From NCBI GenBank assembly GCA_964474445.1, contig CAYYSJ010000005.1, positions 17,835-81,834 on the forward strand: a DNA stretch of 64,000 nucleotides, given 5' to 3'. Positions 59 through 37,086 of this stretch are shown here, one piece after another; position 1 is the stretch's first letter, and the number at the start of each line of letters is the position of its first letter. Origin of the DNA: an uncultured Gammaproteobacteria bacterium (GTDB lineage Bacteria; Patescibacteriota; Microgenomatia; Levybacterales; UBA12049). Below the pieces are notes generated by a model. That model saw only the letters and a program-made list of their open reading frames with translations, searched no databases and was not told the origin of the DNA. Both the position numbers and the translations under genes were made by a program.

Positions 59-868
59 TCAGTTAATCTCTAAAATATTCGTCAGGCAATGTGCACCTCC
101 TCCTGACTTCATAAATTCACTCAAATCAACCTCTTCTGTTTTATATCCTAAGTCATGAAGTTGTTCTACAAATGTTGGGTTACCTTTTTGGACAATCACA
201 TGATGGTCTGTCACAACACTATTGGATGAAAAACCAAATGCTTCCTCTTTGGTCAATTCTAGTAAATTGGGAATTCTTTTTTTTAGTTCCTGGATAGTTC
301 CAGGAGAATATGCAGGTGGATAATAAAATACGGTCTCATTGTTGAGTGGAAAAAAACCTACATCCAGATGATAAAAAGCAGGATCCATAATTTTTAAGTA
401 CACCACTTCCTTATCATATTTTTTCTGAAGAAATTTGGGGATTTCAGGATCTGAACGATATCCTGTTCCAACAAAAATGGTGTCATTCCAAAAATAGGTC
501 TCACCATTTCCTTCAAGATAATGATGTTTTGGCAATTCTACTATGTCATATCCTTTGTCCCTAAACCATTTTTTATAGTGCTCCCTTTCTCCTTGTCGTT
601 GTACCGGTCTAAAATTACTCAGCAGTACTTCCCTTTCCTTCACAATTCCTTGATCAGTTGCAAAGACCATATCATGCAATCCTTTTACTTGTGGAATGAC
701 ATCAACTGAAATGCCAAGTCTCTCGTAAATTTGTTTTAAACTATTCCATTGTTCTTTCGCTTTTTTTCTATCAACACTTCCAGGTTTCATCCAAGGGTTA
801 TAGATAAACTCAACAGTAAAGTGTAGGGGATCACACATCAGGACGCGGGTAATATTGGAGTGTTTCAT
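59..868 (-). CDS. Amidinotransferase-superfamily enzyme (DDAH / arginine-deiminase-like, about 269 aa)
   Basis: C-terminal GGGAHCLT motif with a catalytic-Cys signature typical of the amidinotransferase/DDAH/ADI fold. The size fits DDAH-like enzymes rather than a 410-aa ADI. Sits next to argG. Confidence 0.5.
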   Translation of the reverse strand: MKHSNITRVLMCDPLHFTVEFIYNPWMKPGSVDRKKAKEQWNSLKQIYERLGISVDVIPQVKGLHDMVFATDQGIVKEREVLLSNFRPVQRQGEREHYKKWFRDKGYDIVELPKHHYLEGNGETYFWNDTIFVGTGYRSDPEIPKFLQKKYDKEVVYLKIMDPAFYHLDVGFFPLNNETVFYYPPAYSPGTIQELKKRIPNLLELTKEEAFGFSSNSVVTDHHVIVQKGNPTFVEQLHDLGYKTEEVDLSEFMKSGGGAHCLTNILEIN

Positions 869-874
869 AGGAAA

Positions 875-2491
875 CTATTTTGATGCTGATAATTTTTCTA
901 TAAATTCATGTGCAACTGTTGGTGATGTGATAAGTGGTGCGTTATACCGGACCGCCATTTGTCTTGTGAATTGCCCATCTGTTTTTTCCTTGTTTGTTGT
1001 TATTTTCCCCGTTGGGATATTAATAATGACGTCAAACCGATTTGCTTCTAATAAGTCCTTGAGATTTGGTTTGAGATGAGGTTGCGACACTTTGTTCACT
1101 GCAACTGATTCGATGTGATGTGCTTTCAAGAATTTATGGGTTTTATACGTAGCATAGAGTCGGTATTTAAGGTCTGATAAGCGTTTAATATCTGGAAGCA
1201 TTTTTATTTTATTCTCTCTTTTTCCAATACTGACTAATGCCGTTCTTTCTGCTCGTTGTGCTAGTCTCATTTGCAGTGTATAGAGCTCAATAAACCCAGC
1301 TGAAGCATTTTGATTGAACGCAGTGCTTGCCATAAAGGTTGCAAGTTTTTCTTCAAAAATCGTATTAGGAGTTTCAAGAGCTATCATATGAACGTTTCCT
1401 TTATATAACTTAAGAGTAACTTTTCCTGTCACCTTCTTATTCACATTATCAACATATGCATTCAAATCGTCCATGAGAGGCTCGTACCATAATCCTCCGT
1501 AACATAAGTATGCCCATTTTGTATCAATCAGAGATTTGAATTCATTTTCTGCCCGTGTTGAAACATATGCTTCCAGTTGCTTGTGGGCAGTAACAATAAC
1601 TTCCGCAGCAGGGGCTTCAAAAATATCACGAATTTTTAGTCCAACTACCCTATCTTCAATATGAATATTAGTGCCAACACCATGCTTTGATCCTATGGTG
1701 TTTAATTTCATAATAAGATCTGCAAGTTTCATTTGTTGTCCATTGAGAGCAACAGGAAGACCTTTCACAAATTCAAGATCAACAATTTCTGATGTGTCTG
1801 GAGCTTCCTCTGGAAGTTTGTTGATTTGAAGAATTTTCTCAAGTGGAGCAACGAGTGCAGGATTTTCTATTTCTCCCCCTTCTCCTGAGATTCCCCACAT
1901 ATTGTCATCGTATGAATATGGCTTATCTTTTGTTTGGCTTACTGGAATACCGTGTTTTTTTGCGTAGTCTATTTCTTCATCTCTTCCCATATTCCACTCT
2001 CGTACTGGTGCAATAATTTTCATGTCAGGATTGAGAGCAAGAATCGTTCCCTCAATTCTCACCTGGTCATTCCCTTTGCCCGTGCATCCATGTGCAATAC
2101 AGTCTGCCCCTTCTTGCTCTGCAATTTTGACTGCCCATTTTGCGAGCAGTGGTCTTCCAAGAGGTGTTGCAAGACGATATTCTTGTTGATAAGAGGCATT
2201 TGCTTTGATTCCTTTTGCAATATACTCTTGTGCAAATTCATCTTTTGCATCGATAACAAATGCTTTCACAGCACCAAGTTTGAGTGCTTTTTTCTTGATG
2301 ACATCTAAATCATCTGCAATTTGACCAATATCAATAGTTAGTGCAATAACTTCTGCTTTGTATTCTTCATGAATCCATTTGAGCATGACTGATGTGTCCA
2401 GACCACCGGAATAGAGGAGAACAACTTTATTGACCTCACCTTTTCGGCCTTCGTAGGAGGAAACTTTTACGTATTCTGTTTTTTTCTTCAT
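875..2491 (-). CDS. argG: Argininosuccinate synthase with a C-terminal CarB-type MGS-like (allosteric) domain fusion
   Basis: N-terminal PP-loop VVLLYSGGLDTSV and ArgG-wide similarity over about 400 aa. The extra roughly 130 C-terminal residues (YRLYATYKTHKFLKAHHIESVAVNKVSQPHLKPNLKDLLEANRFDVIINIPTGK...RQMAVRYNAPLITS) match the MGS-like allosteric domain of the carbamoyl-phosphate synthase large subunit. Confidence 0.8.
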   Translation of the reverse strand: MKKKTEYVKVSSYEGRKGEVNKVVLLYSGGLDTSVMLKWIHEEYKAEVIALTIDIGQIADDLDVIKKKALKLGAVKAFVIDAKDEFAQEYIAKGIKANASYQQEYRLATPLGRPLLAKWAVKIAEQEGADCIAHGCTGKGNDQVRIEGTILALNPDMKIIAPVREWNMGRDEEIDYAKKHGIPVSQTKDKPYSYDDNMWGISGEGGEIENPALVAPLEKILQINKLPEEAPDTSEIVDLEFVKGLPVALNGQQMKLADLIMKLNTIGSKHGVGTNIHIEDRVVGLKIRDIFEAPAAEVIVTAHKQLEAYVSTRAENEFKSLIDTKWAYLCYGGLWYEPLMDDLNAYVDNVNKKVTGKVTLKLYKGNVHMIALETPNTIFEEKLATFMASTAFNQNASAGFIELYTLQMRLAQRAERTALVSIGKRENKIKMLPDIKRLSDLKYRLYATYKTHKFLKAHHIESVAVNKVSQPHLKPNLKDLLEANRFDVIINIPTGKITTNKEKTDGQFTRQMAVRYNAPLITSPTVAHEFIEKLSASK

Positions 2492-2677
2492 AGAGAGAGA
2501 AAAATGAAGGAGATTTCTTGGAAAATGTGATATTTTTTATATTTTTTTACGTTTTTCCAAAAAAAGTAACCCTTACTACAGTAGAGAAAATGGCAAAGCT
2601 TTGTCAATAGGCAAATTGAAGAATTCTAAATAAATATGTATTTTCTTTTAAAAATGAACGTTTTATTGTTAAATTTA

Positions 2678-3535
2678 TTAATTTTTTAGAGATTTTTCAG
2701 TAGCAACGACTAAATTCTCCATGAGACACGCAACATTCACTGGTCCTACTCCTCCCGGGATTGGCGTATACCATCCTGCTTTGTCCTTTATATCTTCTTC
2801 ATCGTAATCTCCCACAAATGTTCCCTCTTCTGTCCTACTCAGACCAATCCCAACAAGAATTGCATCCTTTTTTATCATGTCAGAGGTAAGGACATGTGGC
2901 TTGCCAACAGCGGTGATAATGATATCTGCTTGTTGTGTGATTTCTGATGGGTGAGGAGTTTTTGAGTCAATAACAGTCACATCTTCTCCACGTTTTTTTA
3001 GGAGCTCTATAACAGGTAGTCCTCCAGTTTTTCCTTTCCCCATGACAACAATCTTTTTTGATGCAAGCCATTCATTGAAAGACTCTCCTGTTTTCTCTGT
3101 CTCTTTTATCATAGGGATTTCCAAAACTTTCATGACTGCATTTGCAATAGGGATAATAAATTGGGAATTCGGAACAAATCCGTCAACATCTTTGTTTGGA
3201 TGAATTTCTTTAATCAGTGCTTCATAGTCAATATGGGAAGGTACAGGGAGTTGAAGGATAAGACCGTGAACATCTGTTTTGTCTTGTAAAAATGCGATGC
3301 ACTCTTTAAGTGTTTGCTGGTTAACAGAGTCTGGAAAATTGTAAACAGAAACAACTGCGCCAATTTGTTTGGCCATTTTTTCTTTTTGTGCAATATATGA
3401 AGAAATTGCTGGATCCTCTCCTACTCGAATAACTGCCATGTGAGGTTGAACCTGAAAATCTTGATCAAGCTCATCAACACGATGTAAAAGGTCTGCAAGA
3501 ATATAATTTGAGATTGTCTTGCCGTCAATAATCAT
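2678..3535 (-). CDS. folD: Bifunctional methylenetetrahydrofolate dehydrogenase/cyclohydrolase
   Basis: Full-length similarity to FolD: GKTIS start and PIPGGVGPVNVACLMENL C-terminal motif. Confidence 0.85.
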   Translation of the reverse strand: MIIDGKTISNYILADLLHRVDELDQDFQVQPHMAVIRVGEDPAISSYIAQKEKMAKQIGAVVSVYNFPDSVNQQTLKECIAFLQDKTDVHGLILQLPVPSHIDYEALIKEIHPNKDVDGFVPNSQFIIPIANAVMKVLEIPMIKETEKTGESFNEWLASKKIVVMGKGKTGGLPVIELLKKRGEDVTVIDSKTPHPSEITQQADIIITAVGKPHVLTSDMIKKDAILVGIGLSRTEEGTFVGDYDEEDIKDKAGWYTPIPGGVGPVNVACLMENLVVATEKSLKN

Positions 3536-3568: not shown

Positions 3569-3967
3569 TTACTGCTTTTTGCGATTTCTCTGTTTTCTTC
3601 TTTCGTTAGTTATTCGTTGAGAGAGAATGTTATAACGACGTGCAGTATCAGGAGAAGATAAAACATAACTTCTGCTTCTGGGAGAAAATTCTAAACCATC
3701 AGGATAGGTATCCCCAAATTGTGAAGCAGTAAAGTCCTCTCTTTCTCCATCTGGAAGCTCATTAATATAGTGAGACCGCATGTGAGCAAAAGCTGATCCT
3801 TCCAGTGACGCTCGAAGGAGTCTTCCGCCTAGCCTTTTTTGAGCGGCTGCAGCAACAACAGCACATTGCCCATACATTGGATTTTCAGAAGTCCAATTGT
3901 TAGGATCTGAGGATGTATCTTGTTGACATGCTTGTGTTAGCGTTGTGGTAAACTCTTCTTTTCTCAT
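3569..3967 (-). CDS. Hypothetical protein (132 aa), last gene of a six-gene small-protein operon
   Basis: Intact ORF, adjacent to the upstream gene. Conserved-looking NWTSENPMYGQCAVVAAAAQKRLGG segment. Arg/Lys-rich tail. Confidence 0.4.
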   Translation of the reverse strand: MRKEEFTTTLTQACQQDTSSDPNNWTSENPMYGQCAVVAAAAQKRLGGRLLRASLEGSAFAHMRSHYINELPDGEREDFTASQFGDTYPDGLEFSPRSRSYVLSSPDTARRYNILSQRITNERRKQRNRKKQ

Positions 3968-3969
3968 TC

Positions 3970-4209
3970 TTATGAAGCTCTTCGCATTCTGCTTTTTGCT
4001 GCCTCCCTTGCAATTTCATAATGGACTCCTAATAGGAGTGGATTCATTGCCGCAATACCATTTGATTCTGCTTCTCTCATGAATTTTCTTGACTTGTGTA
4101 AAAAGAGACCTTTATTTGGCCTCAGCTCATCCTCATATGCTGCTCGTCTTGCTTTTGCAAGAAATGCTTCTTGTTCTGGAGTAAGTTGATACTCTTGTTC
4201 TCTTAGCAT
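3970..4209 (-). CDS. Hypothetical small protein (79 aa)
   Basis: ORF tightly packed in an operon (3-5 nt gaps). Charged, helical composition. Confidence 0.35.
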   Translation of the reverse strand: MLREQEYQLTPEQEAFLAKARRAAYEDELRPNKGLFLHKSRKFMREAESNGIAAMNPLLLGVHYEIAREAAKSRMRRAS

Positions 4210-4214
4210 AGTAA

Positions 4215-4553
4215 TTATCCCAAATCTTCCAATGGCATTTTTGCAAGAAGCCTTCTTTTTTGTTTGGTTCCTTCTATATCTCTTATCGCTTCTACATCTG
4301 ATGTTGTTTCCACCTCACGATAATCAAATGCCCTCTCAAGACGGTCTCTTTCTGCTATGGCGCTTTGTCTTCTCTGCTCAACCTCTTCCCTTTTTACATC
4401 ACTAAGAGGTGAAGAAAGTTGCAGACGAGTTCGTCGAAGTTCTTCTGTTACAGAACGAAATTCTTTTTGCAGTCTCATAAGTCGTCCTCTTTCTTGAAAA
4501 TCAATAAGATTCATAGCTAGGTAGCCTTTACGTACCCTTTCTTTCGTAGCCAC
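4215..4553 (-). CDS. Hypothetical coiled-coil protein (112 aa; alternative start at 4514 gives 99 aa)
   Basis: ORF with a strongly Arg/Glu-rich heptad-like sequence. The alternative ATG at 4514 lies 2 nt after the upstream stop codon. Confidence 0.35.
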   Translation of the reverse strand: MATKERVRKGYLAMNLIDFQERGRLMRLQKEFRSVTEELRRTRLQLSSPLSDVKREEVEQRRQSAIAERDRLERAFDYREVETTSDVEAIRDIEGTKQKRRLLAKMPLEDLG

Positions 4554-4948
4554 AGTTGTGTTCGTTTATATTGTTCATCATCATGTTCTCTTCGTTCTTG
4601 TCCATCAGGTCCTGTAGCTGTTCTCGTTGTTAGTTTATCTAAAACTTCTCCTTTTGCCTTTCGTATTGCATTCAATTCTTTTGCCACGTGCTCTAATGTA
4701 ACCGGAGTTTCTCTGGTGCCTTGAAATGCAGAGACTCGTCTTTTGAGTTCTGCTCCATCTAAAACGTGATGACCATTCGCAGTTGAAATGCGTCGTTGTT
4801 GCTCAAGATCGTCATACTCTTTCCTCAGTGCTTGTTCACGTCTTCGTTGGTCAAGATCAATAGGCTGAGTATTGGCAGTACTTTCGTTATGAGAAGGAGT
4901 GCTTTGTGGATGTTCGATTTTTTTTTGTTCAAAGTCAATAATTGTCAT
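4517..4948 (-). CDS. Hypothetical protein (143 aa)
   Basis: ORF in an operon. Charged low-complexity sequence with no recognised domain. Confidence 0.35.
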   Translation of the reverse strand: MTIIDFEQKKIEHPQSTPSHNESTANTQPIDLDQRRREQALRKEYDDLEQQRRISTANGHHVLDGAELKRRVSAFQGTRETPVTLEHVAKELNAIRKAKGEVLDKLTTRTATGPDGQERREHDDEQYKRTQLWLRKKGYVKAT

Positions 4949-4951
4949 AGG

Positions 4952-5509
4952 TTAGCTTGCTCTTCTTCTTGGACCTTTTTTGGGCCCTTCGGTTGGGCCA
5001 TCAAATGGTTTCCAGTCAAAAGTTCCTCTTCGTACCGCTTGTATTGTATTTGCTACAGCAATTGCTGCCATTTCGTGATCCCATGCGTCATTGTGATATG
5101 GCTCTCCCCTTTTCATGAGTCTTTCCCTTTCTGCTTTCATCTTGATAAATGCTTCTGGGTCAGTGCGATATGCTCTTCTTGCTCGTGCGGTATCTGGATG
5201 AATAATCTCATCAACAGGATTTAAATTTCCTCCAATATGAATATCTTCACAAACAGAGATTACGTTATACGGATGATCTGCTGCTTTTGCAGAGAGACCT
5301 TTTACTTGGACTTCAACACCAAAAGGGCTCACATGATGTACGTGCAATGTTTTATCTTTGCCATTGCATACATGCACTCCTGGAAATTGACACTCATATC
5401 CATCTCTTCTTCTAATTTCCTCTTTTGCTGCGTCCGTTAATGTGCGTTTTTCTATTGGATATAATGTATATTTTTCGCCTTGGTCTTTTCTTACATCTGG
5501 TTTTCCCAT
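4952..5509 (-). CDS. HNH endonuclease-domain protein
   Basis: Motif CQFPGVHVC...LHVHHV...NVISVCEDIH fits the Cys...Cys / HH / N...C..H HNH nuclease pattern. Confidence 0.5.
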   Translation of the reverse strand: MGKPDVRKDQGEKYTLYPIEKRTLTDAAKEEIRRRDGYECQFPGVHVCNGKDKTLHVHHVSPFGVEVQVKGLSAKAADHPYNVISVCEDIHIGGNLNPVDEIIHPDTARARRAYRTDPEAFIKMKAERERLMKRGEPYHNDAWDHEMAAIAVANTIQAVRRGTFDWKPFDGPTEGPKKGPRRRAS

Positions 5510-6294
5510 CGTCTTCTCCTTCCTATATCTTCTTTTCCAAATACTTTTCCCGTGGCAGCTTCTACCTCATTGCTGTATCCTTTTTTTGCCATTGGACCAA
5601 GAATGTCGTTATACATAAAAAAAAGCAGCTCTTGTTGAGCTGCTGGATTAGAGGCAAGAAGGCCGAAAAGGCTTTCCCCTGGCTCAAGCAACCAGGTGAA
5701 CGCATTAGTGAGATGTTCTCTTAATGCTGTGTCAAATTCTTGAGGAGAAAGATTTGCATAATGGGGCAAGGTCTTTAGGGTTTTTACAATAAATCCTCTG
5801 TCAAAAATGGTGAGTGGTTGGGCTTTATCAAGAACACGGGTCATAAAGCCTTCTTTATCCATGCGTCCTTCACGATGTTCAAATCTGTCATCTAAGTCTT
5901 CTACATAGACTCTGTCCTGTTGGGAAAAAAGTGGAAAAACATCACTTTCCTTGTATTCCTGTTCATATGCATCATATTGAGCGCGAAGTTGGTCATAGTC
6001 TTGGCGGCCTCTTGATAAATCTCCATGAAGGTTTGCTTCTCCACTATCATGCAGGTCTGCCATAATATCTACTTCGTTCAAGTTAATTGCTTTCGAAAGG
6101 TGAGGATACTTTTGCCTTATGGAGCCAGAAAGTCTTTTCATGCCATTGACGTGATCAAGGACTGTTTCTTGTCTTCCTTGGTTATCTGTTATACCGTTGT
6201 AGCGAATAATTTGAGGAAGAATAGTACTCCTCACACGAGCAAGTGAGGCTTTAAGAGTAGGACTAGAGGCTAATGCTTCGGCTCTCTGAACCAT
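5491..6294 (-). CDS. HD-domain phosphohydrolase (YfbR-like 5'-deoxynucleotidase fold)
   Basis: VLDHVNGM ... IMADLHDSGEANLHGDL matches the H...HD...D metal-binding signature of the HD superfamily. Confidence 0.45.
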   Translation of the reverse strand: MVQRAEALASSPTLKASLARVRSTILPQIIRYNGITDNQGRQETVLDHVNGMKRLSGSIRQKYPHLSKAINLNEVDIMADLHDSGEANLHGDLSRGRQDYDQLRAQYDAYEQEYKESDVFPLFSQQDRVYVEDLDDRFEHREGRMDKEGFMTRVLDKAQPLTIFDRGFIVKTLKTLPHYANLSPQEFDTALREHLTNAFTWLLEPGESLFGLLASNPAAQQELLFFMYNDILGPMAKKGYSNEVEAATGKVFGKEDIGRRRRWENQM

Positions 6295-32710: not shown

Positions 32711-33498
32711 GCATGCTTGCTGTTATGATATATTTTTTTGTATTTATTGTTGGACTGTGTGTTGGTTCTTTTTTGAATGTTGTTATTGATAGAATCCCTC
32801 ACCATAGATCTATTGTGAAAGGAAGATCAGAGTGTGATTTTTGTCACCATACTCTTGCCTGGTATGATCTTATTCCTGTTTTCTCATTTGTCTTTCTCAG
32901 AGGTGCATGCAGATATTGCAAACACACGTTGTCACTTCAGTACCCGATTGTTGAAATACTTACCGGAGTATTATTTCTTGTGTCATACGTCTTACTACTA
33001 GGAAGTCCAGGTGTTTTTGCATTGGGAAAGTCGTTTCTTCTTTTGAGTCTTTTTGCAACATTTTTTGCTCTTTCTGTAATGGATATAAAATATGGAATAT
33101 TATCTGACACGTTAATCCTCTTTTCGGTAGGACTAACAGTTGGACTGTTGTTATTTTCTCCTGCGCTTTTTTTTGCACATCTTTTGGTTGGATTTGTGTG
33201 TTTGGGCGTATTATTGCTTCTTTTTCTTGTGACGAAAGGTCGAGGAATTGGGCTTGGTGATGTCAAACTAAGTTTTGTGATGGGACTATTGCTTGGATTC
33301 CCCTCAATTGTCGTTGCGTTCTATATAGCTTTCTTGACAGGTGCTTGTATTGCAATCATACTAATAGTAGCAAAGAAAAAAAAGCTGGTTGGAGGGACAA
33401 TAGCATTTGGTCCTTTCTTGCTTCTTGGGACATATATCAGCTGGTATTTTGGTAGCAGCGTATGGATGTTTTTTCTGCACATACTCGGCATTCTTTAG
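32698..33498 (+). CDS. pilD: Prepilin peptidase PilD (A24 family)
   Basis: N-terminal CxxC...CxxC zinc-binding region (CDFC...CRYC). Eight TM helices. Asp-containing peptidase motifs. Confidence 0.85.
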   Translation: MGCVSMLAVMIYFFVFIVGLCVGSFLNVVIDRIPHHRSIVKGRSECDFCHHTLAWYDLIPVFSFVFLRGACRYCKHTLSLQYPIVEILTGVLFLVSYVLLLGSPGVFALGKSFLLLSLFATFFALSVMDIKYGILSDTLILFSVGLTVGLLLFSPALFFAHLLVGFVCLGVLLLLFLVTKGRGIGLGDVKLSFVMGLLLGFPSIVVAFYIAFLTGACIAIILIVAKKKKLVGGTIAFGPFLLLGTYISWYFGSSVWMFFLHILGIL

Positions 33499-34232
33499 AA
33501 AAAGGGTTTACGCTTATTGAACTATTAGTTGTTGTTGTCATGTTTGCAACACTACTTCTTGGTCTTATTGTTACCTTTAATCCACTCGGTCAGATCAATA
33601 AGGCAAAAAACCTTGATCGTGAACATAACCTTGACCAAATAAAATCAGCCTTGGATAGTTATTATAACGATAATGGGTGTTACCCAACTGCTCTCACGTT
33701 TGGGTCCATATGGCAAAATAACAATAGTGTCTATATGCCAAAAGTCCCCCAAGATCCTGATTTTGTCAGCGGCTCAACAAGCAATCTTCCCTACGTCTAT
33801 CAAACAGATGGGTCAAGTTGTCCTCAATGGAATGTGTTGTATGCGGGACTTCGGGTACCTATTAATATTTCACTTCCCTGTCCTCTTGCCAAAAGAACAG
33901 CATGTGTTCCCCAGGGATTTAACTCGTTCTATAATTTCTGTCTCTCCTCAGGAACGGTAAATTGTGCGTATATTGCCTCCACAAGTCTTCAGACAGGTCC
34001 TACTCCTACCCAACCTGCAACTCCTACACCAACTGTGGGTCCAACCCCAACTCCCTATATTGTTAATTGTCAAACAAACTATTATGCATGTACTGGAGAT
34101 AACAGGTGTAATGTCTTGAGTGTTGATCCTGTGTCGCATCAACCAACACAGTGTTTTGGCTATGGAGGGACGTACCAATGTTATTGTGATAATCTTTGTC
34201 GAGTAAATGGCGTGCTACAATGTGCACACTAA
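33462..34232 (+). CDS. Type IV pilin-like protein with a Pro/Thr linker and Cys-rich C-terminal domain
   Basis: EKG/FTLIELLVVVVMF class III signal. TGPTPTQPATPTPTVGPTPTP linker. C-terminal module with nine Cys. Confidence 0.7.
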   Translation: MDVFSAHTRHSLEKGFTLIELLVVVVMFATLLLGLIVTFNPLGQINKAKNLDREHNLDQIKSALDSYYNDNGCYPTALTFGSIWQNNNSVYMPKVPQDPDFVSGSTSNLPYVYQTDGSSCPQWNVLYAGLRVPINISLPCPLAKRTACVPQGFNSFYNFCLSSGTVNCAYIASTSLQTGPTPTQPATPTPTVGPTPTPYIVNCQTNYYACTGDNRCNVLSVDPVSHQPTQCFGYGGTYQCYCDNLCRVNGVLQCAH

Positions 34233-34241
34233 GCAATTGCT

Positions 34242-34841
34242 ATGAAAACAAAAAAACGAGTAGGACACTCCTTTATCACACGTAATCATCATGCTGGTTT
34301 TACCATGGTAGAACTGTTAATTAGTATTGGTGTGTTAGCAATACTTGCTGTGTTTGCATTAGCTGCAGTAAACCCGATTGATCAATTTAAAAAAGCAAGA
34401 GACTCGCAGAGAAAATCTGATTTAGCACAACTGCAAAAAGTTTTGGAACAATACTATCAAGACTGGGGACACTATCCTCCCAATAGCAATGCGTATCAAC
34501 TTGAGGATGAGAGAGCAAATCCCTATACTATCATTCCGTGGGGAGGGTCTGGAGGATGGACTCCCTATATTGATCTTGTTCCAAAAGATCCTGATCCTGC
34601 TCGTACGTATATCTATTACTCAACAAATAGCGGCCAAAAATATTATGTATATACCTCTCTGGAAAGAGGACCGCTTGATCCGACAACATGTATGGCAACA
34701 AATGCGCAGTGTAAGGCAAATCCTACAAGCACATTCTGTAATTGTACAGGTGCAACGAGTTTAACAACGCCGACATTTTGTGGGGCAACAACACTCCTTC
34801 CTTGTAATTATGGTGCGACAAGTTCAAACACGACACCCTAA
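34242..34841 (+). CDS. Type IV pilin (GspG/PilA-like)
   Basis: HAG/FTMVELLISIGVLAILA prepilin motif. Confidence 0.75.
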   Translation: MKTKKRVGHSFITRNHHAGFTMVELLISIGVLAILAVFALAAVNPIDQFKKARDSQRKSDLAQLQKVLEQYYQDWGHYPPNSNAYQLEDERANPYTIIPWGGSGGWTPYIDLVPKDPDPARTYIYYSTNSGQKYYVYTSLERGPLDPTTCMATNAQCKANPTSTFCNCTGATSLTTPTFCGATTLLPCNYGATSSNTTP

Positions 34842-34859
34842 GACGTTGACGATTTCTTT

Positions 34860-35387
34860 GTGACACTTTACTATAACAATATGAAGATAAAAAGAAAAAA
34901 CAGTATATACACTCGCTCACTCACGACGATACAACGAGGGTTTACTCTTGTTGAGCTGTTGATTGTTATTGCAATCATTGGCATTCTCTCAACACTGCTA
35001 ATGGCCAATTTTATCGGTATCAGACAACGAGCACGAGATGCGCAACGAAAATCTGATGTGCGACAAATCCAGTCAGCACTTGAGTTGTATAGAGCAGATA
35101 ATGGAAGTTACCCTGCACCGGCAGGGTCGAATGGGTTAACAACAAATTGCCCAAATCCAGCCGCCTTTACTGCAAACGGGACAACGTATATGGCTCAAAT
35201 CCCTTGTGATCCACTGGGAGCCTCTTTCTATCACTCAGGAAACTATTTTTATAAACTAACAACAGGTGGATATGAACTGGGTACATGTTTGGAAAATATA
35301 GCTGACAATGATTATTATTCTGGCAGTTTTGATGGAGCTGATAATTCTTGTACCACAGCACACTATTTTGTAAAAACAAACCCCTAA
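34860..35387 (+). CDS. Type IV pilin (GspG/PilE-like)
   Basis: QRG/FTLVELLIVIAIIGILS prepilin motif. Conserved NGSYP segment. Confidence 0.75.
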   Translation: MTLYYNNMKIKRKNSIYTRSLTTIQRGFTLVELLIVIAIIGILSTLLMANFIGIRQRARDAQRKSDVRQIQSALELYRADNGSYPAPAGSNGLTTNCPNPAAFTANGTTYMAQIPCDPLGASFYHSGNYFYKLTTGGYELGTCLENIADNDYYSGSFDGADNSCTTAHYFVKTNP

Positions 35388-35426
35388 TACATTGACGCAG
35401 AAGATCCAACCATTTACCATAGAATT

Positions 35427-35996
35427 ATGTTAGACAAAAAAGGAAGGACGTCTCAGTCGGGGTTCACTCTTATTGAGCTTATTATTGTCTTCACGCTTTT
35501 TACGCTTCTTTCAGGAGTTGGTGTTGCTTCCTTTGTTACCTATAGCAGAAGCCAGGCAGTTGATAATAGTATGAAAGAGCTAAAAACCACACTATTTACT
35601 GCCAGGTCGCGAGCACTTTCCCAGTTAAAAGATGCGAGTTGTGGAAGTTCAACAAATCTGCAACTTCTTGGATATGAGGTTGTTTTATGTACAGTTCCAG
35701 GTCATTCCCACCCTGCAAATGTTGCGTGTAATGCTGCCTCAAACTCCTATGAGTTACAAATTATTTGTGGAAAGCCAGATGGTTCAGGACAAATTGCAAC
35801 TACGGTGCTTGGAAAAAGTTTTATTGATCGAAATATCAGTTTTGATACAACCTCAACTGCAACGTATTTCTTTTTCACATCAATAACAGCATCTGTTATA
35901 TCAGATAATGCAAGTGGTGGAAACCCAACAGCTGTTATCAATGGCTATTCTCTGAAAAAATCGGTAAATGTATCCCAGACTGGAGTTATTCAATGA
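35427..35996 (+). CDS. Pseudopilin (GspH/FimT-like)
   Basis: QSG/FTLIELIIVFTLF class III signal. Confidence 0.7.
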   Translation: MLDKKGRTSQSGFTLIELIIVFTLFTLLSGVGVASFVTYSRSQAVDNSMKELKTTLFTARSRALSQLKDASCGSSTNLQLLGYEVVLCTVPGHSHPANVACNAASNSYELQIICGKPDGSGQIATTVLGKSFIDRNISFDTTSTATYFFFTSITASVISDNASGGNPTAVINGYSLKKSVNVSQTGVIQ

Positions 35997-36526
35997 TCAG
36001 AAATGAACGTGGCCAGACTCTTATTGAAGTATTAGTAGGACTTGCCGCTGCTGTGATTGTTATTGCAGCAATTACTGTTGCTGCTGTTTCCTCTTTAAAT
36101 AATGCTGAATATAGTCGTGACCAGAGTTTAGCAACTCAGTATACGCAAGAAGGCATTGAGGTTGTCAGAAATATGCGAGATCAGAATATCTCTTCAATCA
36201 GTTCTTCCTCTCTTCCTGATGGCACCTATTGTATGGCAAAAGGGTGTCAGTCAATAACGCCAAACGCTGGAAATTGTGGACCACGAAGTGGAAACCGCTG
36301 TAGTCAAAATGTCAATAATTTTGTTCGAGAAATCACCATCCTTCACAATGATAGTACGTGTAATGGCAATGGACCAACCCCGAACCCTACGCCAACGCCG
36401 ACGTTAAAAATAACAGCGGTAACGTACTGGGGTGATACGAAATGTACAAGTTCGACAAATCCATTTTGTCATAGCGTTATCTCAACATCATGTCTTTCTG
36501 ATTTTACGATTGTCCCAACGCCATAA
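35993..36526 (+). CDS. Pseudopilin (PilV/GspI-like)
   Basis: RG/QTLIEVLVGLAAAVIVIAAI N-terminus with Glu at position +5. Confidence 0.6.
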   Translation: MIRNERGQTLIEVLVGLAAAVIVIAAITVAAVSSLNNAEYSRDQSLATQYTQEGIEVVRNMRDQNISSISSSSLPDGTYCMAKGCQSITPNAGNCGPRSGNRCSQNVNNFVREITILHNDSTCNGNGPTPNPTPTPTLKITAVTYWGDTKCTSSTNPFCHSVISTSCLSDFTIVPTP

Positions 36527-36528
36527 CT

Positions 36529-37086
36529 ATGAAAATTTCTCGACATGTTTTTCGTTTACCAAGGCAAGAGGCTGGTTTTACTCTTGTTGAGATGCTTGCT
36601 GTCATGGTTGTTTTTATTATTGTTGGGAGCATTATGCTCTCTATCCTCGTGACAACATTCAGAACATCTCAAAAAACAGATACCCTGACGCAAGTCAGAG
36701 AAAATGGCAACTATGTTCTTACCCAAATGGCAAAAACAATTCGCAGTGCGACAGGTCTTGTTGCTCCTTTCCCCTGTGTGACCCCAGTCATAACAAGTAC
36801 CCTAACCGTTCTGACGCCTGATCATAATCAGATTATCTATGATTGTACGATCCCACCCAGTCCAACTCCTGCCACGATTGCATCAAACAGTGCATCTGTC
36901 CTGGATACCTCAGCCGTTACATTAACCGCCTGTAGCTTTACGTGTACACAAAATAGTAAAAGCGAATTGCCTATCATACAAATCAATTTTTCGCTCAAAC
37001 AGCAAAGTAGTAGTACCTTTGTTGAAAAAACCGTTTCCACTGTTTCTTTCCAAACATCCGTTGTTATGAGAAACATCATTCGCTAG
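36529..37086 (+). CDS. Pseudopilin (PilW/GspJ-like)
   Basis: EAG/FTLVEMLAVMVVFIIVGS class III signal. Confidence 0.7.
   Translation: MKISRHVFRLPRQEAGFTLVEMLAVMVVFIIVGSIMLSILVTTFRTSQKTDTLTQVRENGNYVLTQMAKTIRSATGLVAPFPCVTPVITSTLTVLTPDHNQIIYDCTIPPSPTPATIASNSASVLDTSAVTLTACSFTCTQNSKSELPIIQINFSLKQQSSSTFVEKTVSTVSFQTSVVMRNIIR

Follow-up and report, generated by a model that had tools for sequence, protein, structure and literature searches.

The closest described relatives of the element reported here are the allosteric domains of two carbamoyl-phosphate synthetases (CPSs). In Escherichia coli CarB, a C-terminal domain (residues ~937-1073) binds UMP, IMP, and ornithine; in human CPS1, the L4 domain (PDB 2yvq and 5dou) is the N-acetylglutamate switch. 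Argininosuccinate synthase (ArgG) is usually controlled via gene expression, and to our knowledge no ArgG with an appended regulatory or effector domain has been characterized. We analyzed a 64,000-nucleotide (nt) stretch of contig CAYYSJ010000005.1 (positions 17,835 to 81,834 of the forward strand; below, the window), in which positions 875..2491 of the minus strand appear to encode such a protein: a single unbroken frame of 538 aa, closed by a stop codon at 875-877, that joins ArgG to a C-terminal, CarB-type methylglyoxal synthase-like (MGS-like) domain. The source records annotate the fused protein simply as "argininosuccinate synthase." Taken singly, the parts are members of known families (ArgG; the MGS-like allosteric domain of CPSs; and, for the gene downstream, the ArgZ-like pentein hydrolases). 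Literature searches on ArgG with an MGS-like domain, Microgenomates, or Patescibacteria returned no description of the fusion, and the combination is undescribed in the literature found.

A predicted CarB/CPS1-type domain behind a complete ArgG

The fused protein exceeds a 400-aa ArgG by ~138 aa, made up of a 21-aa N-terminal extension and a C-terminal domain of ~122 aa. An earlier note on this DNA was right that the protein is longer than normal; its figure of ~130 aa gives way to a measured ~138 aa that includes the N-terminal 21 aa. The ArgG catalytic core spans aa 22-415 (1247..2428; this and the other parts of the gene are on the minus strand) and was delimited with NF001770, TIGR00032, and the Thermus thermophilus ArgG structure 1j1z. 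NF001770, the NCBIfam argininosuccinate synthase equivalog model, covers aa 19-415 with its positions 3-398 of 401 (519 bits against a cut-off of 334), and Pfam places PF00764 at aa 22-183 and PF20979 at aa 192-410. Since NF001770 is matched end to end, the ArgG part is complete, and the extra 122 residues start no more than 2 residues past the end of the profile. There is no linker between the parts: the core ends in its C-terminal helix, the ArgG profile stops at aa 415, and the first MGS strand runs from aa 417. The MGS-like domain occupies aa 417-538 (878..1243), as judged from PF02142, PDB profile matches, an AlphaFold2 (AF2) model, and Foldseek. At the other end, aa 1-21 (2429..2491) lie ahead of the canonical ArgG start; the ArgG profiles and T. 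thermophilus ArgG begin only at aa 19-22 of the fused protein. In the family alignment, Y7, K9, Y13, E14, K17, and G18 of this extension, which canonical ArgG does not have, are invariant, and the extension might contact the added domain.

Profile matches and the modeled fold both identify the C-terminal part as a predicted MGS-like allosteric domain of the CarB/CPS1 type, as the earlier note had claimed from residue matches to CarB. The note had expected PF02142 within residues 400-538, and Pfam places it at aa 431-522 (51 bits against a gathering threshold of 24.1, E = 1.7e-13). The motif strings quoted in the note were approximately right; the actual ones are VNKVS, PNL.DLL, DVIINIPTG, and APLIT. 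The CarB models TIGR01369 and NF003671 match aa 388-535 with their extreme C-terminal positions 909-1050 (E = 4e-11 and 7e-11), and a profile built from 16 such domains, when run against the PDB, found the human CPS1 allosteric domain (2yvq and 5dou) at E = 6e-12 and E. coli CarB 946-1043 at E = 1.6e-3. The PDB profile matches were all CPSs save one weak match to PurH. MgsA family models were absent among the NCBIfam matches of the fused protein at E <= 0.1, and Pfam found no CPSase_L domains in it; the host enzyme is ArgG, not an ATP-grasp synthetase.

Structure prediction gave an MGS-like fold for the domain alone (a confident AF2 model, pLDDT 84.3 and pTM 0.77); the full-length model, as proposed in the note, was too poor for use. 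The fold comparison therefore rests on the domain-only model, and no conclusion on domain packing is drawn from the full-length one. Foldseek searches with the domain model placed CPS1 and E. coli CarB on top (template modeling [TM] scores of 0.70-0.77), with a probability of 1.0 to CPS1, CarB, and methylglyoxal synthase. Methylglyoxal synthases ranked below the CPSs (TM ~0.65, 16-21% identity), as did PurH.

The likeness to E. coli CarB extends to the same Pfam family, the same fold (TM 0.70-0.74), the same C-terminal position in the host, and a metabolic neighborhood that is likewise that of arginine and pyrimidines. Unlike in CarB, the domain is carried by an enzyme of the N-type ATP-pyrophosphatase fold rather than an ATP-grasp synthetase, its identity to the CarB domain is only ~22-26%, and the residues that complete the ornithine site in CarB are missing. 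The L4 domain of CPS1 is both the best sequence match (E = 6e-12) and the best fold match (TM 0.76), and it shares the INxP motif (P493 corresponding to Pro1439), the signaling arginine (R510 to Arg1453), and the threonine pair at a helix N terminus (T448/T451 to Thr1391/Thr1394). It differs in that Trp1410 is replaced by lysine, as in bacterial CarB, and in that ArgG has no CPSase L3 domain to take the signal; the A-loop that wraps N-acetylglutamate in CPS1 (Thr1443, Lys1444, and Phe1445) is a variable loop in ArgG-MGS.

Conservation of the effector pocket

The pocket-equivalent residues in the window's domain are S421, K428, T448, T451, K467, N491, P493, D505, R510, and T522; the codons for T448 through T451 lie at 1139-1150 (minus strand; coordinates checked). 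Alignment with HMMER and MAFFT sets these residues against S948, K954, T974, T977, K993, N1015, R1030, and T1042 of E. coli CarB, all of which have their equivalents kept, and against T1391, T1394, W1410, N1437, P1439, and R1453 of human CPS1. Of the CarB residues, K954, T974, and N1015 belong to the pocket in the IMP complex. Functional data exist for several of the others: UMP binding and inhibition depend critically on Thr977 and Lys993, the Ser948Phe change does away with the response to UMP and IMP, and Thr1042 serves ornithine, whose site is formed where the allosteric and carbamoyl-phosphate domains meet (PMC6245113). In CPS1, Thr1391, Thr1394, Trp1410, Asn1437, and Pro1439 line the N-acetylglutamate site, and Pro1439 and Arg1453 transmit the signal (PMC4655335).

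Across 22 full-length members of the fused family, K428, T448, K467, N491, P493, D505, G506, R510, and T522 are invariant, S421 and T451 are conserved in at least 90%, and K450, H452, and S469 likewise belong to the polar positions that vary little or not at all. Conservation of the MGS part is close to that of the catalytic core, with a mean column identity of 71% compared to 78% overall. The pocket residues are kept in P0175, a fused ArgG with no more than 34% identity in the MGS domain, and are mostly kept in the AsnA-like, dihydroorotase-fused, and stand-alone versions of the domain described below. This pattern points to a maintained ligand site. The conservation of the CarB/CPS1 pocket residues makes an effector-binding regulatory role plausible, and direct allosteric control of ArgG, as far as sequence can indicate it, is a reasonable inference.

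Spread of the fusion

Homologues of the fused protein were collected from NCBI, JGI, ENA, and Logan assemblies and comprised at least 120 protein clusters, of which 120 were listed, at 73-100% identity. All 120 listed homologues combine PF00764, PF20979, and PF02142; they are 518-572 aa long, nearly all 535-545 aa. In a scan of one genome per species, the fusion was present in 76 genomes. Complete genomes with the fusion include CP066689.1, OY970292.1, and OZ246394.1. The unbroken frame, together with this recurrence of one architecture, bears out the earlier claim that the fusion resides in one gene. More ArgG-MGS representatives were found in a library clustered at 50% identity, with MGS domains 34-49% identical to that of the window. 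An independent Logan contig (L082) overlaps the window by 1,882 nt with zero mismatches, the junction included.

The lineages, which were taken from record titles, many of them generic or probably wrong, are where named mostly Roizman-, Levy-, Gottesman-, Davies-, or Woykebacteria, Microgenomates, or "Patescibacteria group." The fusion thus appears, from its sequence distribution, to be a lineage trait of Microgenomates-type Patescibacteria. Spread outside the candidate phyla radiation (CPR), as might be read from titles such as "uncultured Gammaproteobacteria," "Limisphaerales," "Methylomirabilota," and "Sulfotelmatobacter," was not accepted; the MGS domains concerned are 53-73% identical to the query. 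The sole locus with a non-CPR label that was checked individually (L071) has the same gene context as the other loci.

Putative ArgG activity and the arginine pathway

The ArgG part looks functional, with a putative activity supported by its family scores and motifs. Both curated ArgG models were passed, TIGR00032 with 473 bits against a cut-off of 268 in addition to NF001770, and T. thermophilus ArgG (1j1z, ~400 aa) aligns collinearly along its full length, with 371 bits over aa 22-409. The P-loop LLYSGGLDTS and HGCTGKGNDQVRIE (the GxTGKGNDQVR motif) are invariant in the 22 members and align with T. thermophilus ArgG, which has SGGLDTS, GxTGKGNDQVR, and the C-terminal helix in common with the window protein. 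Departures from canonical ArgG are the 21-aa N-terminal extension, the 122-aa C-terminal domain, and, in the window's subgroup, a phenylalanine for Y270, which is taken up below. A change at P110 (S89 in T. thermophilus) was considered as an altered citrulline site and rejected, as this position is Ser, Ala, or deleted among solved ArgGs. A divergent ArgG-MGS protein of 535 aa, P0127, has a degenerate P-loop (TGGIKSS) and a degenerate substrate motif and may be a noncatalytic paralogue.

The next gene downstream (59..868, minus strand, 269 aa) begins 6 nt past the ArgG stop codon and encodes a putative guanidino-group hydrolase. The earlier note had assigned it to the DDAH/arginine deiminase (ADI) amidinotransferase fold with a GGGAHCLT motif, and this agrees with PF19420 (46 bits against a cut-off of 23, E = 4e-12) and the presence of the motif. 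Among solved structures, its closest relatives are the catalytic N-terminal domain of ArgZ (Sll1336; 6jv0, E = 2e-52), to which it is ~45% identical as judged by eye from the alignment, and AgrE (6lrf, E = 3e-48); DDAH structures matched only at E = 3e-9. Family models for specific activities stayed under their cut-offs: NF052232 (arginine dihydrolase) scored 210 bits against 450, the NCBIfam model DiMArgaseDdahMtb (Mycobacterium tuberculosis-type DDAH) 238 against 300, and the arginine deiminase models PF02274 and NF002381 18.8 against 22.8 and 15.8 against 414, respectively. In the alignment with ArgZ, the His of FYHLD and the Cys of GGGAHCLT fall on their ArgZ counterparts; an Asn that differs between the ArgZ sequences 6jv0 and 6juz is Asp in the window protein. 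By sequence, then, the protein is far closer to the ArgZ/AgrE arginine dihydrolases than to DDAH or ADI; unlike these dihydrolases, it is a single-domain protein in which the C-terminal domain is absent. ArgZ converts arginine to ornithine, ammonia, and CO2. Since its product is ornithine, a supply of citrulline to ArgG, as the note had proposed for this neighbor, is not the best reading of the gene.

Gene context was counted over 77 loci with ArgG-MGS, taking neighbors within 10 kb. An ArgZ-like gene follows on the same strand in 21 of the 77 loci, directly in all of these but L047, where one short open reading frame (ORF) intervenes; the pair that the note envisaged as a compact module is thus not a constant one. 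ArgH occurs in 6 of the 77 loci, three of which (L019, L041, and L044) have it immediately next to ArgG-MGS, and ArgF is near ArgG-MGS in L010, L023, and L052. CtlX (citrulline hydrolase; 349 bits against a cut-off of 334) stands beside ArgG-MGS in 6 loci, and an arginase-like protein (TIGR01229, 197 bits, under the cut-off of 228) in 2. The arginase-family gene lies directly upstream of the fused ArgG in L073 (7762-8688, minus strand) and L076 (7627-8601, plus strand), whose fused ArgGs are the two most divergent in the genome scan (~55% identity). In L076, no ArgZ-like neighbor was seen in the available sequence, which ends shortly downstream; L073 has a CtlX-type gene upstream.

The fullest arginine gene set was found on CAYQEE010000011.1 (62 kb; L079 and L004), whose ArgG-MGS is 78% identical to that of the window. 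The gene order there is GyrA, FolD, ..., ArgH, ..., ArgF, CarA, CarB, ..., ArgG-MGS, ArgZ-like, with ArgH identified by TIGR00838 (349 bits against a cut-off of 279.5) and ArgF by TIGR00658 (405 against 281). This contig thus holds counterparts of all parts of the cyanobacterial ornithine-ammonia cycle (CarAB, ArgF, ArgG, ArgH, and ArgZ/AgrE). A putative cycle of this kind would run here in a small-genome CPR bacterium, not a cyanobacterium. A GNAT acetyltransferase gene is also present on the same CPR contig.

Pyrimidine genes around ArgG-MGS

The strongest conserved context of ArgG-MGS is pyrimidine and carbamoyl-phosphate metabolism. At least one pyr or car gene lies within 10 kb in 54 of the 77 loci; of the 44 loci with a length of 15 kb or more, 36 have one. 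PyrF is present in 37 of the 77, PyrD in 27, CarA and CarB in 11, PyrE in 10, and PyrC in 6; a PyrB-type carbamoyltransferase was counted in 10 (7 PyrB and 3 ArgF after reclassification). On one strand of L007, L009, and L011, the order is ArgG-MGS, amidohydrolase, CarA, CarB, PyrB, PyrC, and PyrD, followed in L009 and L011 by PyrF. The earlier note had set ArgG in a citrulline-arginine context; the dominant pyrimidine cluster starts just past the beginning of the window, outside that reader's view. It was seen on L082, whose flank was recovered through the ArgZ-like protein and which runs beyond window position 1 from the ArgZ-like gene to an amidohydrolase (on the opposite strand, convergent), PyrD, PyrF, Prs (phosphoribosylpyrophosphate synthetase), and PyrE.

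The amidohydrolase, a cytosine-deaminase-like protein of the NF005365 (PRK06886) family, which is named "hypothetical protein," is the most constant neighbor of ArgG-MGS (56 of the 77 loci). The match to NF005365 scores 456 bits, and in L082 the gene lies at 1817-2881 (minus strand). The amidohydrolase is fused to PyrD in L065 (11281-13428, 715 aa) and possibly in L030; pyrimidine salvage and an alternative dihydroorotase activity are candidate roles. FolD lies near ArgG-MGS in 23 of the 77 loci, mostly upstream, and, of the five loci with a gene for an 8-oxoguanine-deaminase-like enzyme, four have it directly downstream of ArgG-MGS.

The same domain on other enzymes

A domain-only search of 1.84 billion representatives gave 417 matches at E <= 1e-3. 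Besides ArgG and CarB, the carriers include AsnRS/AsnA-like proteins with a class II core and no anticodon domain (P0139, P0134, P0192, and P0228 in the library), which have ~490-500 aa or, with the core further fused to PyrD and a phosphoribosyltransferase as in P0134, 1,134 aa. A canonical dihydroorotase, P0148 (491 aa), has the same C-terminal MGS domain, P0151 is a PyrD with the domain, and stand-alone domain proteins of ~120-170 aa also exist (e.g., P0132, 138 aa). The MGS domain of the AsnA-like protein is 50% identical to that of ArgG; the figure for CarB of a related locus, L011, is 29%.

AsnA-like-MGS genes lie within 10 kb of ArgG-MGS in six loci (L034, L038, L044, L046, L047, and L069), three of which have the gene adjoining PyrD; in L034, it is the second gene downstream of ArgG-MGS and encodes 496 aa. 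These six loci and the six with canonical PyrC do not overlap. The AsnA-like-MGS protein might serve the pyrimidine pathway as an ATP-dependent enzyme rather than act as an asparagine synthetase.

The presence of one domain subfamily on the AsnA-like ligase, dihydroorotase, and PyrD in these clusters suggests one shared sensor module, and with it a common effector, for enzymes at the aspartate/carbamoyl-phosphate/pyrimidine node. A much broader version of this idea, which we put forward as speculative and rather doubtful, is that a portable sensor of the CarB subfamily has been grafted onto ArgG, the AsnA-like ligase, dihydroorotase, and PyrD in Microgenomates-type Patescibacteria, so that one effector (e.g., a pyrimidine nucleotide) would partition aspartate and carbamoyl-phosphate precursors, with ArgG-MGS as the regulated step of an ornithine-ammonia-type cycle that includes the ArgZ-like hydrolase. 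If this were so, partitioning would be set by the proteins themselves in genomes where transcriptional control may count for little, and regulation of four enzymes by one domain would amount to compact, regulon-like control via domain fusions.

Possible role of the fused domain

On balance, we think it somewhat more likely than not that the window encodes a true argininosuccinate synthase with a CarB/CPS1-type domain that binds a small anionic effector and modulates ArgG. The enzyme would convert citrulline, aspartate, and ATP to argininosuccinate, AMP, and PPi, and its C-terminal oligomerization helix leads straight into the MGS-like domain. That domain seems to keep the crevice at the C-terminal edge of the parallel sheet, which holds UMP or IMP in E. 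coli CarB and N-acetylglutamate in CPS1, so binding of a small anionic effector would be expected. Given the retained Thr/Thr/Lys triad, the most economical first guess for the ligand would be a pyrimidine or purine nucleoside monophosphate, e.g., UMP or IMP. Effector binding would modulate ArgG activity in one direction or the other. The gene stands at the junction of an arginine set (ArgZ-like and, in relatives, ArgF, ArgH, CarAB, CtlX, and arginase) and the cluster for de novo pyrimidine synthesis. An anabolic ArgG made from the same transcript as a catabolic ArgZ-like enzyme would set up a futile cycle of the ornithine-ammonia type, and ArgG would also draw on the aspartate and carbamoyl-phosphate-derived units that aspartate carbamoyltransferase uses. 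Regulation of the protein itself would take care of both problems.

Several observations weigh against this interpretation. P493 stands where CarB has T1017, and the basic residues K450 and H452 are invariant additions, so that the ligand may be neither UMP nor IMP; S469 is a further invariant addition relative to CarB. In the full-length AF2 model (pLDDT 63, pTM 0.36, 22 close homologues), contacts of the domain with the core or within the tetramer are not readable. The Tyr of SRGxYExP (T. thermophilus Y270), a citrulline-site residue, gives way to Phe in the window protein (IRDIFEAP) and in a total of 22 of the 76 fused ArgGs, with Tyr in the other 54 and in all five solved ArgGs whose alignments were compared; the change makes it less than certain that substrates are handled as usual. 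ArgH and ArgF were not found within the 64-kb window, nor were CarAB or pyr genes. Finally, synteny with pyr genes within one bacterial class may in part reflect shared ancestry, not functional coupling.

It is conceivable, if unlikely, that the MGS-like domain serves structure or docking rather than ligand sensing and stabilizes the ArgG tetramer or pairs with the allosteric domain of CarB, or with the domains on the AsnA-like protein, dihydroorotase, or PyrD, in a multienzyme complex. Its position directly after the oligomerization helix, with no linker, and its occurrence on several enzymes encoded side by side would suit such a role, and the allosteric domains of CarB contribute to contacts in the E. 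coli (alpha-beta)4 tetramer. However, the invariant polar residues line the effector crevice of CarB and CPS1 rather than a surface patch and are kept at 34% domain identity, and a purely structural role has no need of T448, T451, and K467; both roles could coexist. An artifact, in which argG and a small MGS-like gene were joined by a sequencing frameshift or an assembly chimera, is conceivable insofar as stand-alone proteins such as P0132 exist, yet we consider it extremely improbable: the frame is unbroken, the fusion recurs in more than 120 independent clusters from independent assemblies and in 76 species genomes, and L082 is 100% identical over the junction, which together exclude the undetected frameshift raised as a concern in the note.

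Two further explanations concern the pathway rather than the domain. The self-contained citrulline-arginine salvage module of the earlier note, with the neighbor making citrulline and ornithine or arginine acting on the MGS-like domain, could draw on the 6-nt spacing of the two genes on the same strand, the pairing in 21 of the 77 loci, and the alignment of T522 with Thr1042 of the CarB ornithine site (PMC6245113); moreover, Asp in place of the ArgZ 6jv0/6juz Asn makes release of citrulline, instead of full dihydrolysis, conceivable. We nevertheless regard this module as quite unlikely. The closest characterized relatives of the neighbor, ArgZ and AgrE, yield ornithine, the neighbor is absent in 56 of the 77 loci, and the dominant pyrimidine context is left out of account. 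Ornithine is a weak candidate for the effector: in the E. coli structures, the CarB ornithine site is built mainly with residues of another domain that ArgG does not have. The site has been placed at the interface with the carbamoyl-phosphate domain (PMC6245113). The other explanation, which we judge very unlikely, is that ArgG-MGS is a neofunctionalized paralogue that acts, together with the cytosine-deaminase-like amidohydrolase, on another ureido compound in pyrimidine or nucleobase metabolism and makes no argininosuccinate. The frequency of the amidohydrolase (56 of the 77 loci), the 8-oxoguanine-deaminase-like gene directly downstream in four of its five loci, the rarity of ArgH (6 of the 77), and the Y-to-F change in 22 of the 76 fused ArgGs are in keeping with it; on the other side, the protein scores well over the ArgG equivalog cut-offs, residues of the ATP site and the aspartate/citrulline motif are kept, Tyr is retained in most family members, and ArgH, ArgF, arginase, CtlX, and ArgZ-like proteins recur as neighbors.

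An ArgG modulated through a CarB/CPS1-type domain would be a testable case of allostery acquired by domain transfer from a neighboring pathway enzyme, and it may uncover a so far unseen effector logic where arginine and pyrimidine synthesis branch. CPR bacteria are often described as being without biosynthesis; judging from the loci analyzed here, some of them keep a connected gene set for carbamoyl phosphate, arginine, and pyrimidines.

Other features of the window

Upstream of ArgG-MGS, an AT-rich intergenic region of 186 nt (2492..2677; gene orientation minus) separates it from FolD (2678..3535, minus strand), which was identified with Pfam and NCBIfam and serves as context only. This intergenic region presumably holds the promoter of the ArgG-MGS/ArgZ-like pair; scans of the region for tRNAs, Rfam families, promoters, and terminators gave nothing above chance, with promoter-like matches no commoner than in shuffled sequence.

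Between FolD and GyrA, the minus strand of 3569-6294 carries a YunG-family gene and then a series of small ORFs that are rich in charged residues and match no family; one of these (4952-5509) has HNH-like His/Cys motifs, and the GC content of this stretch is slightly higher (0.41). In L079, FolD is followed by other genes, leading to ArgH, ArgF, and CarAB, and this difference suggests that 3569-6294 may be an insertion or rearrangement. Farther along the window, at ~18300-40300, the plus strand holds a long block of co-directional ORFs, and prepilin-like N termini (GFTLIELL/GFTLVELL) at 33462-37086 suggest that this block is a putative type IV pilus or pseudopilus cluster.

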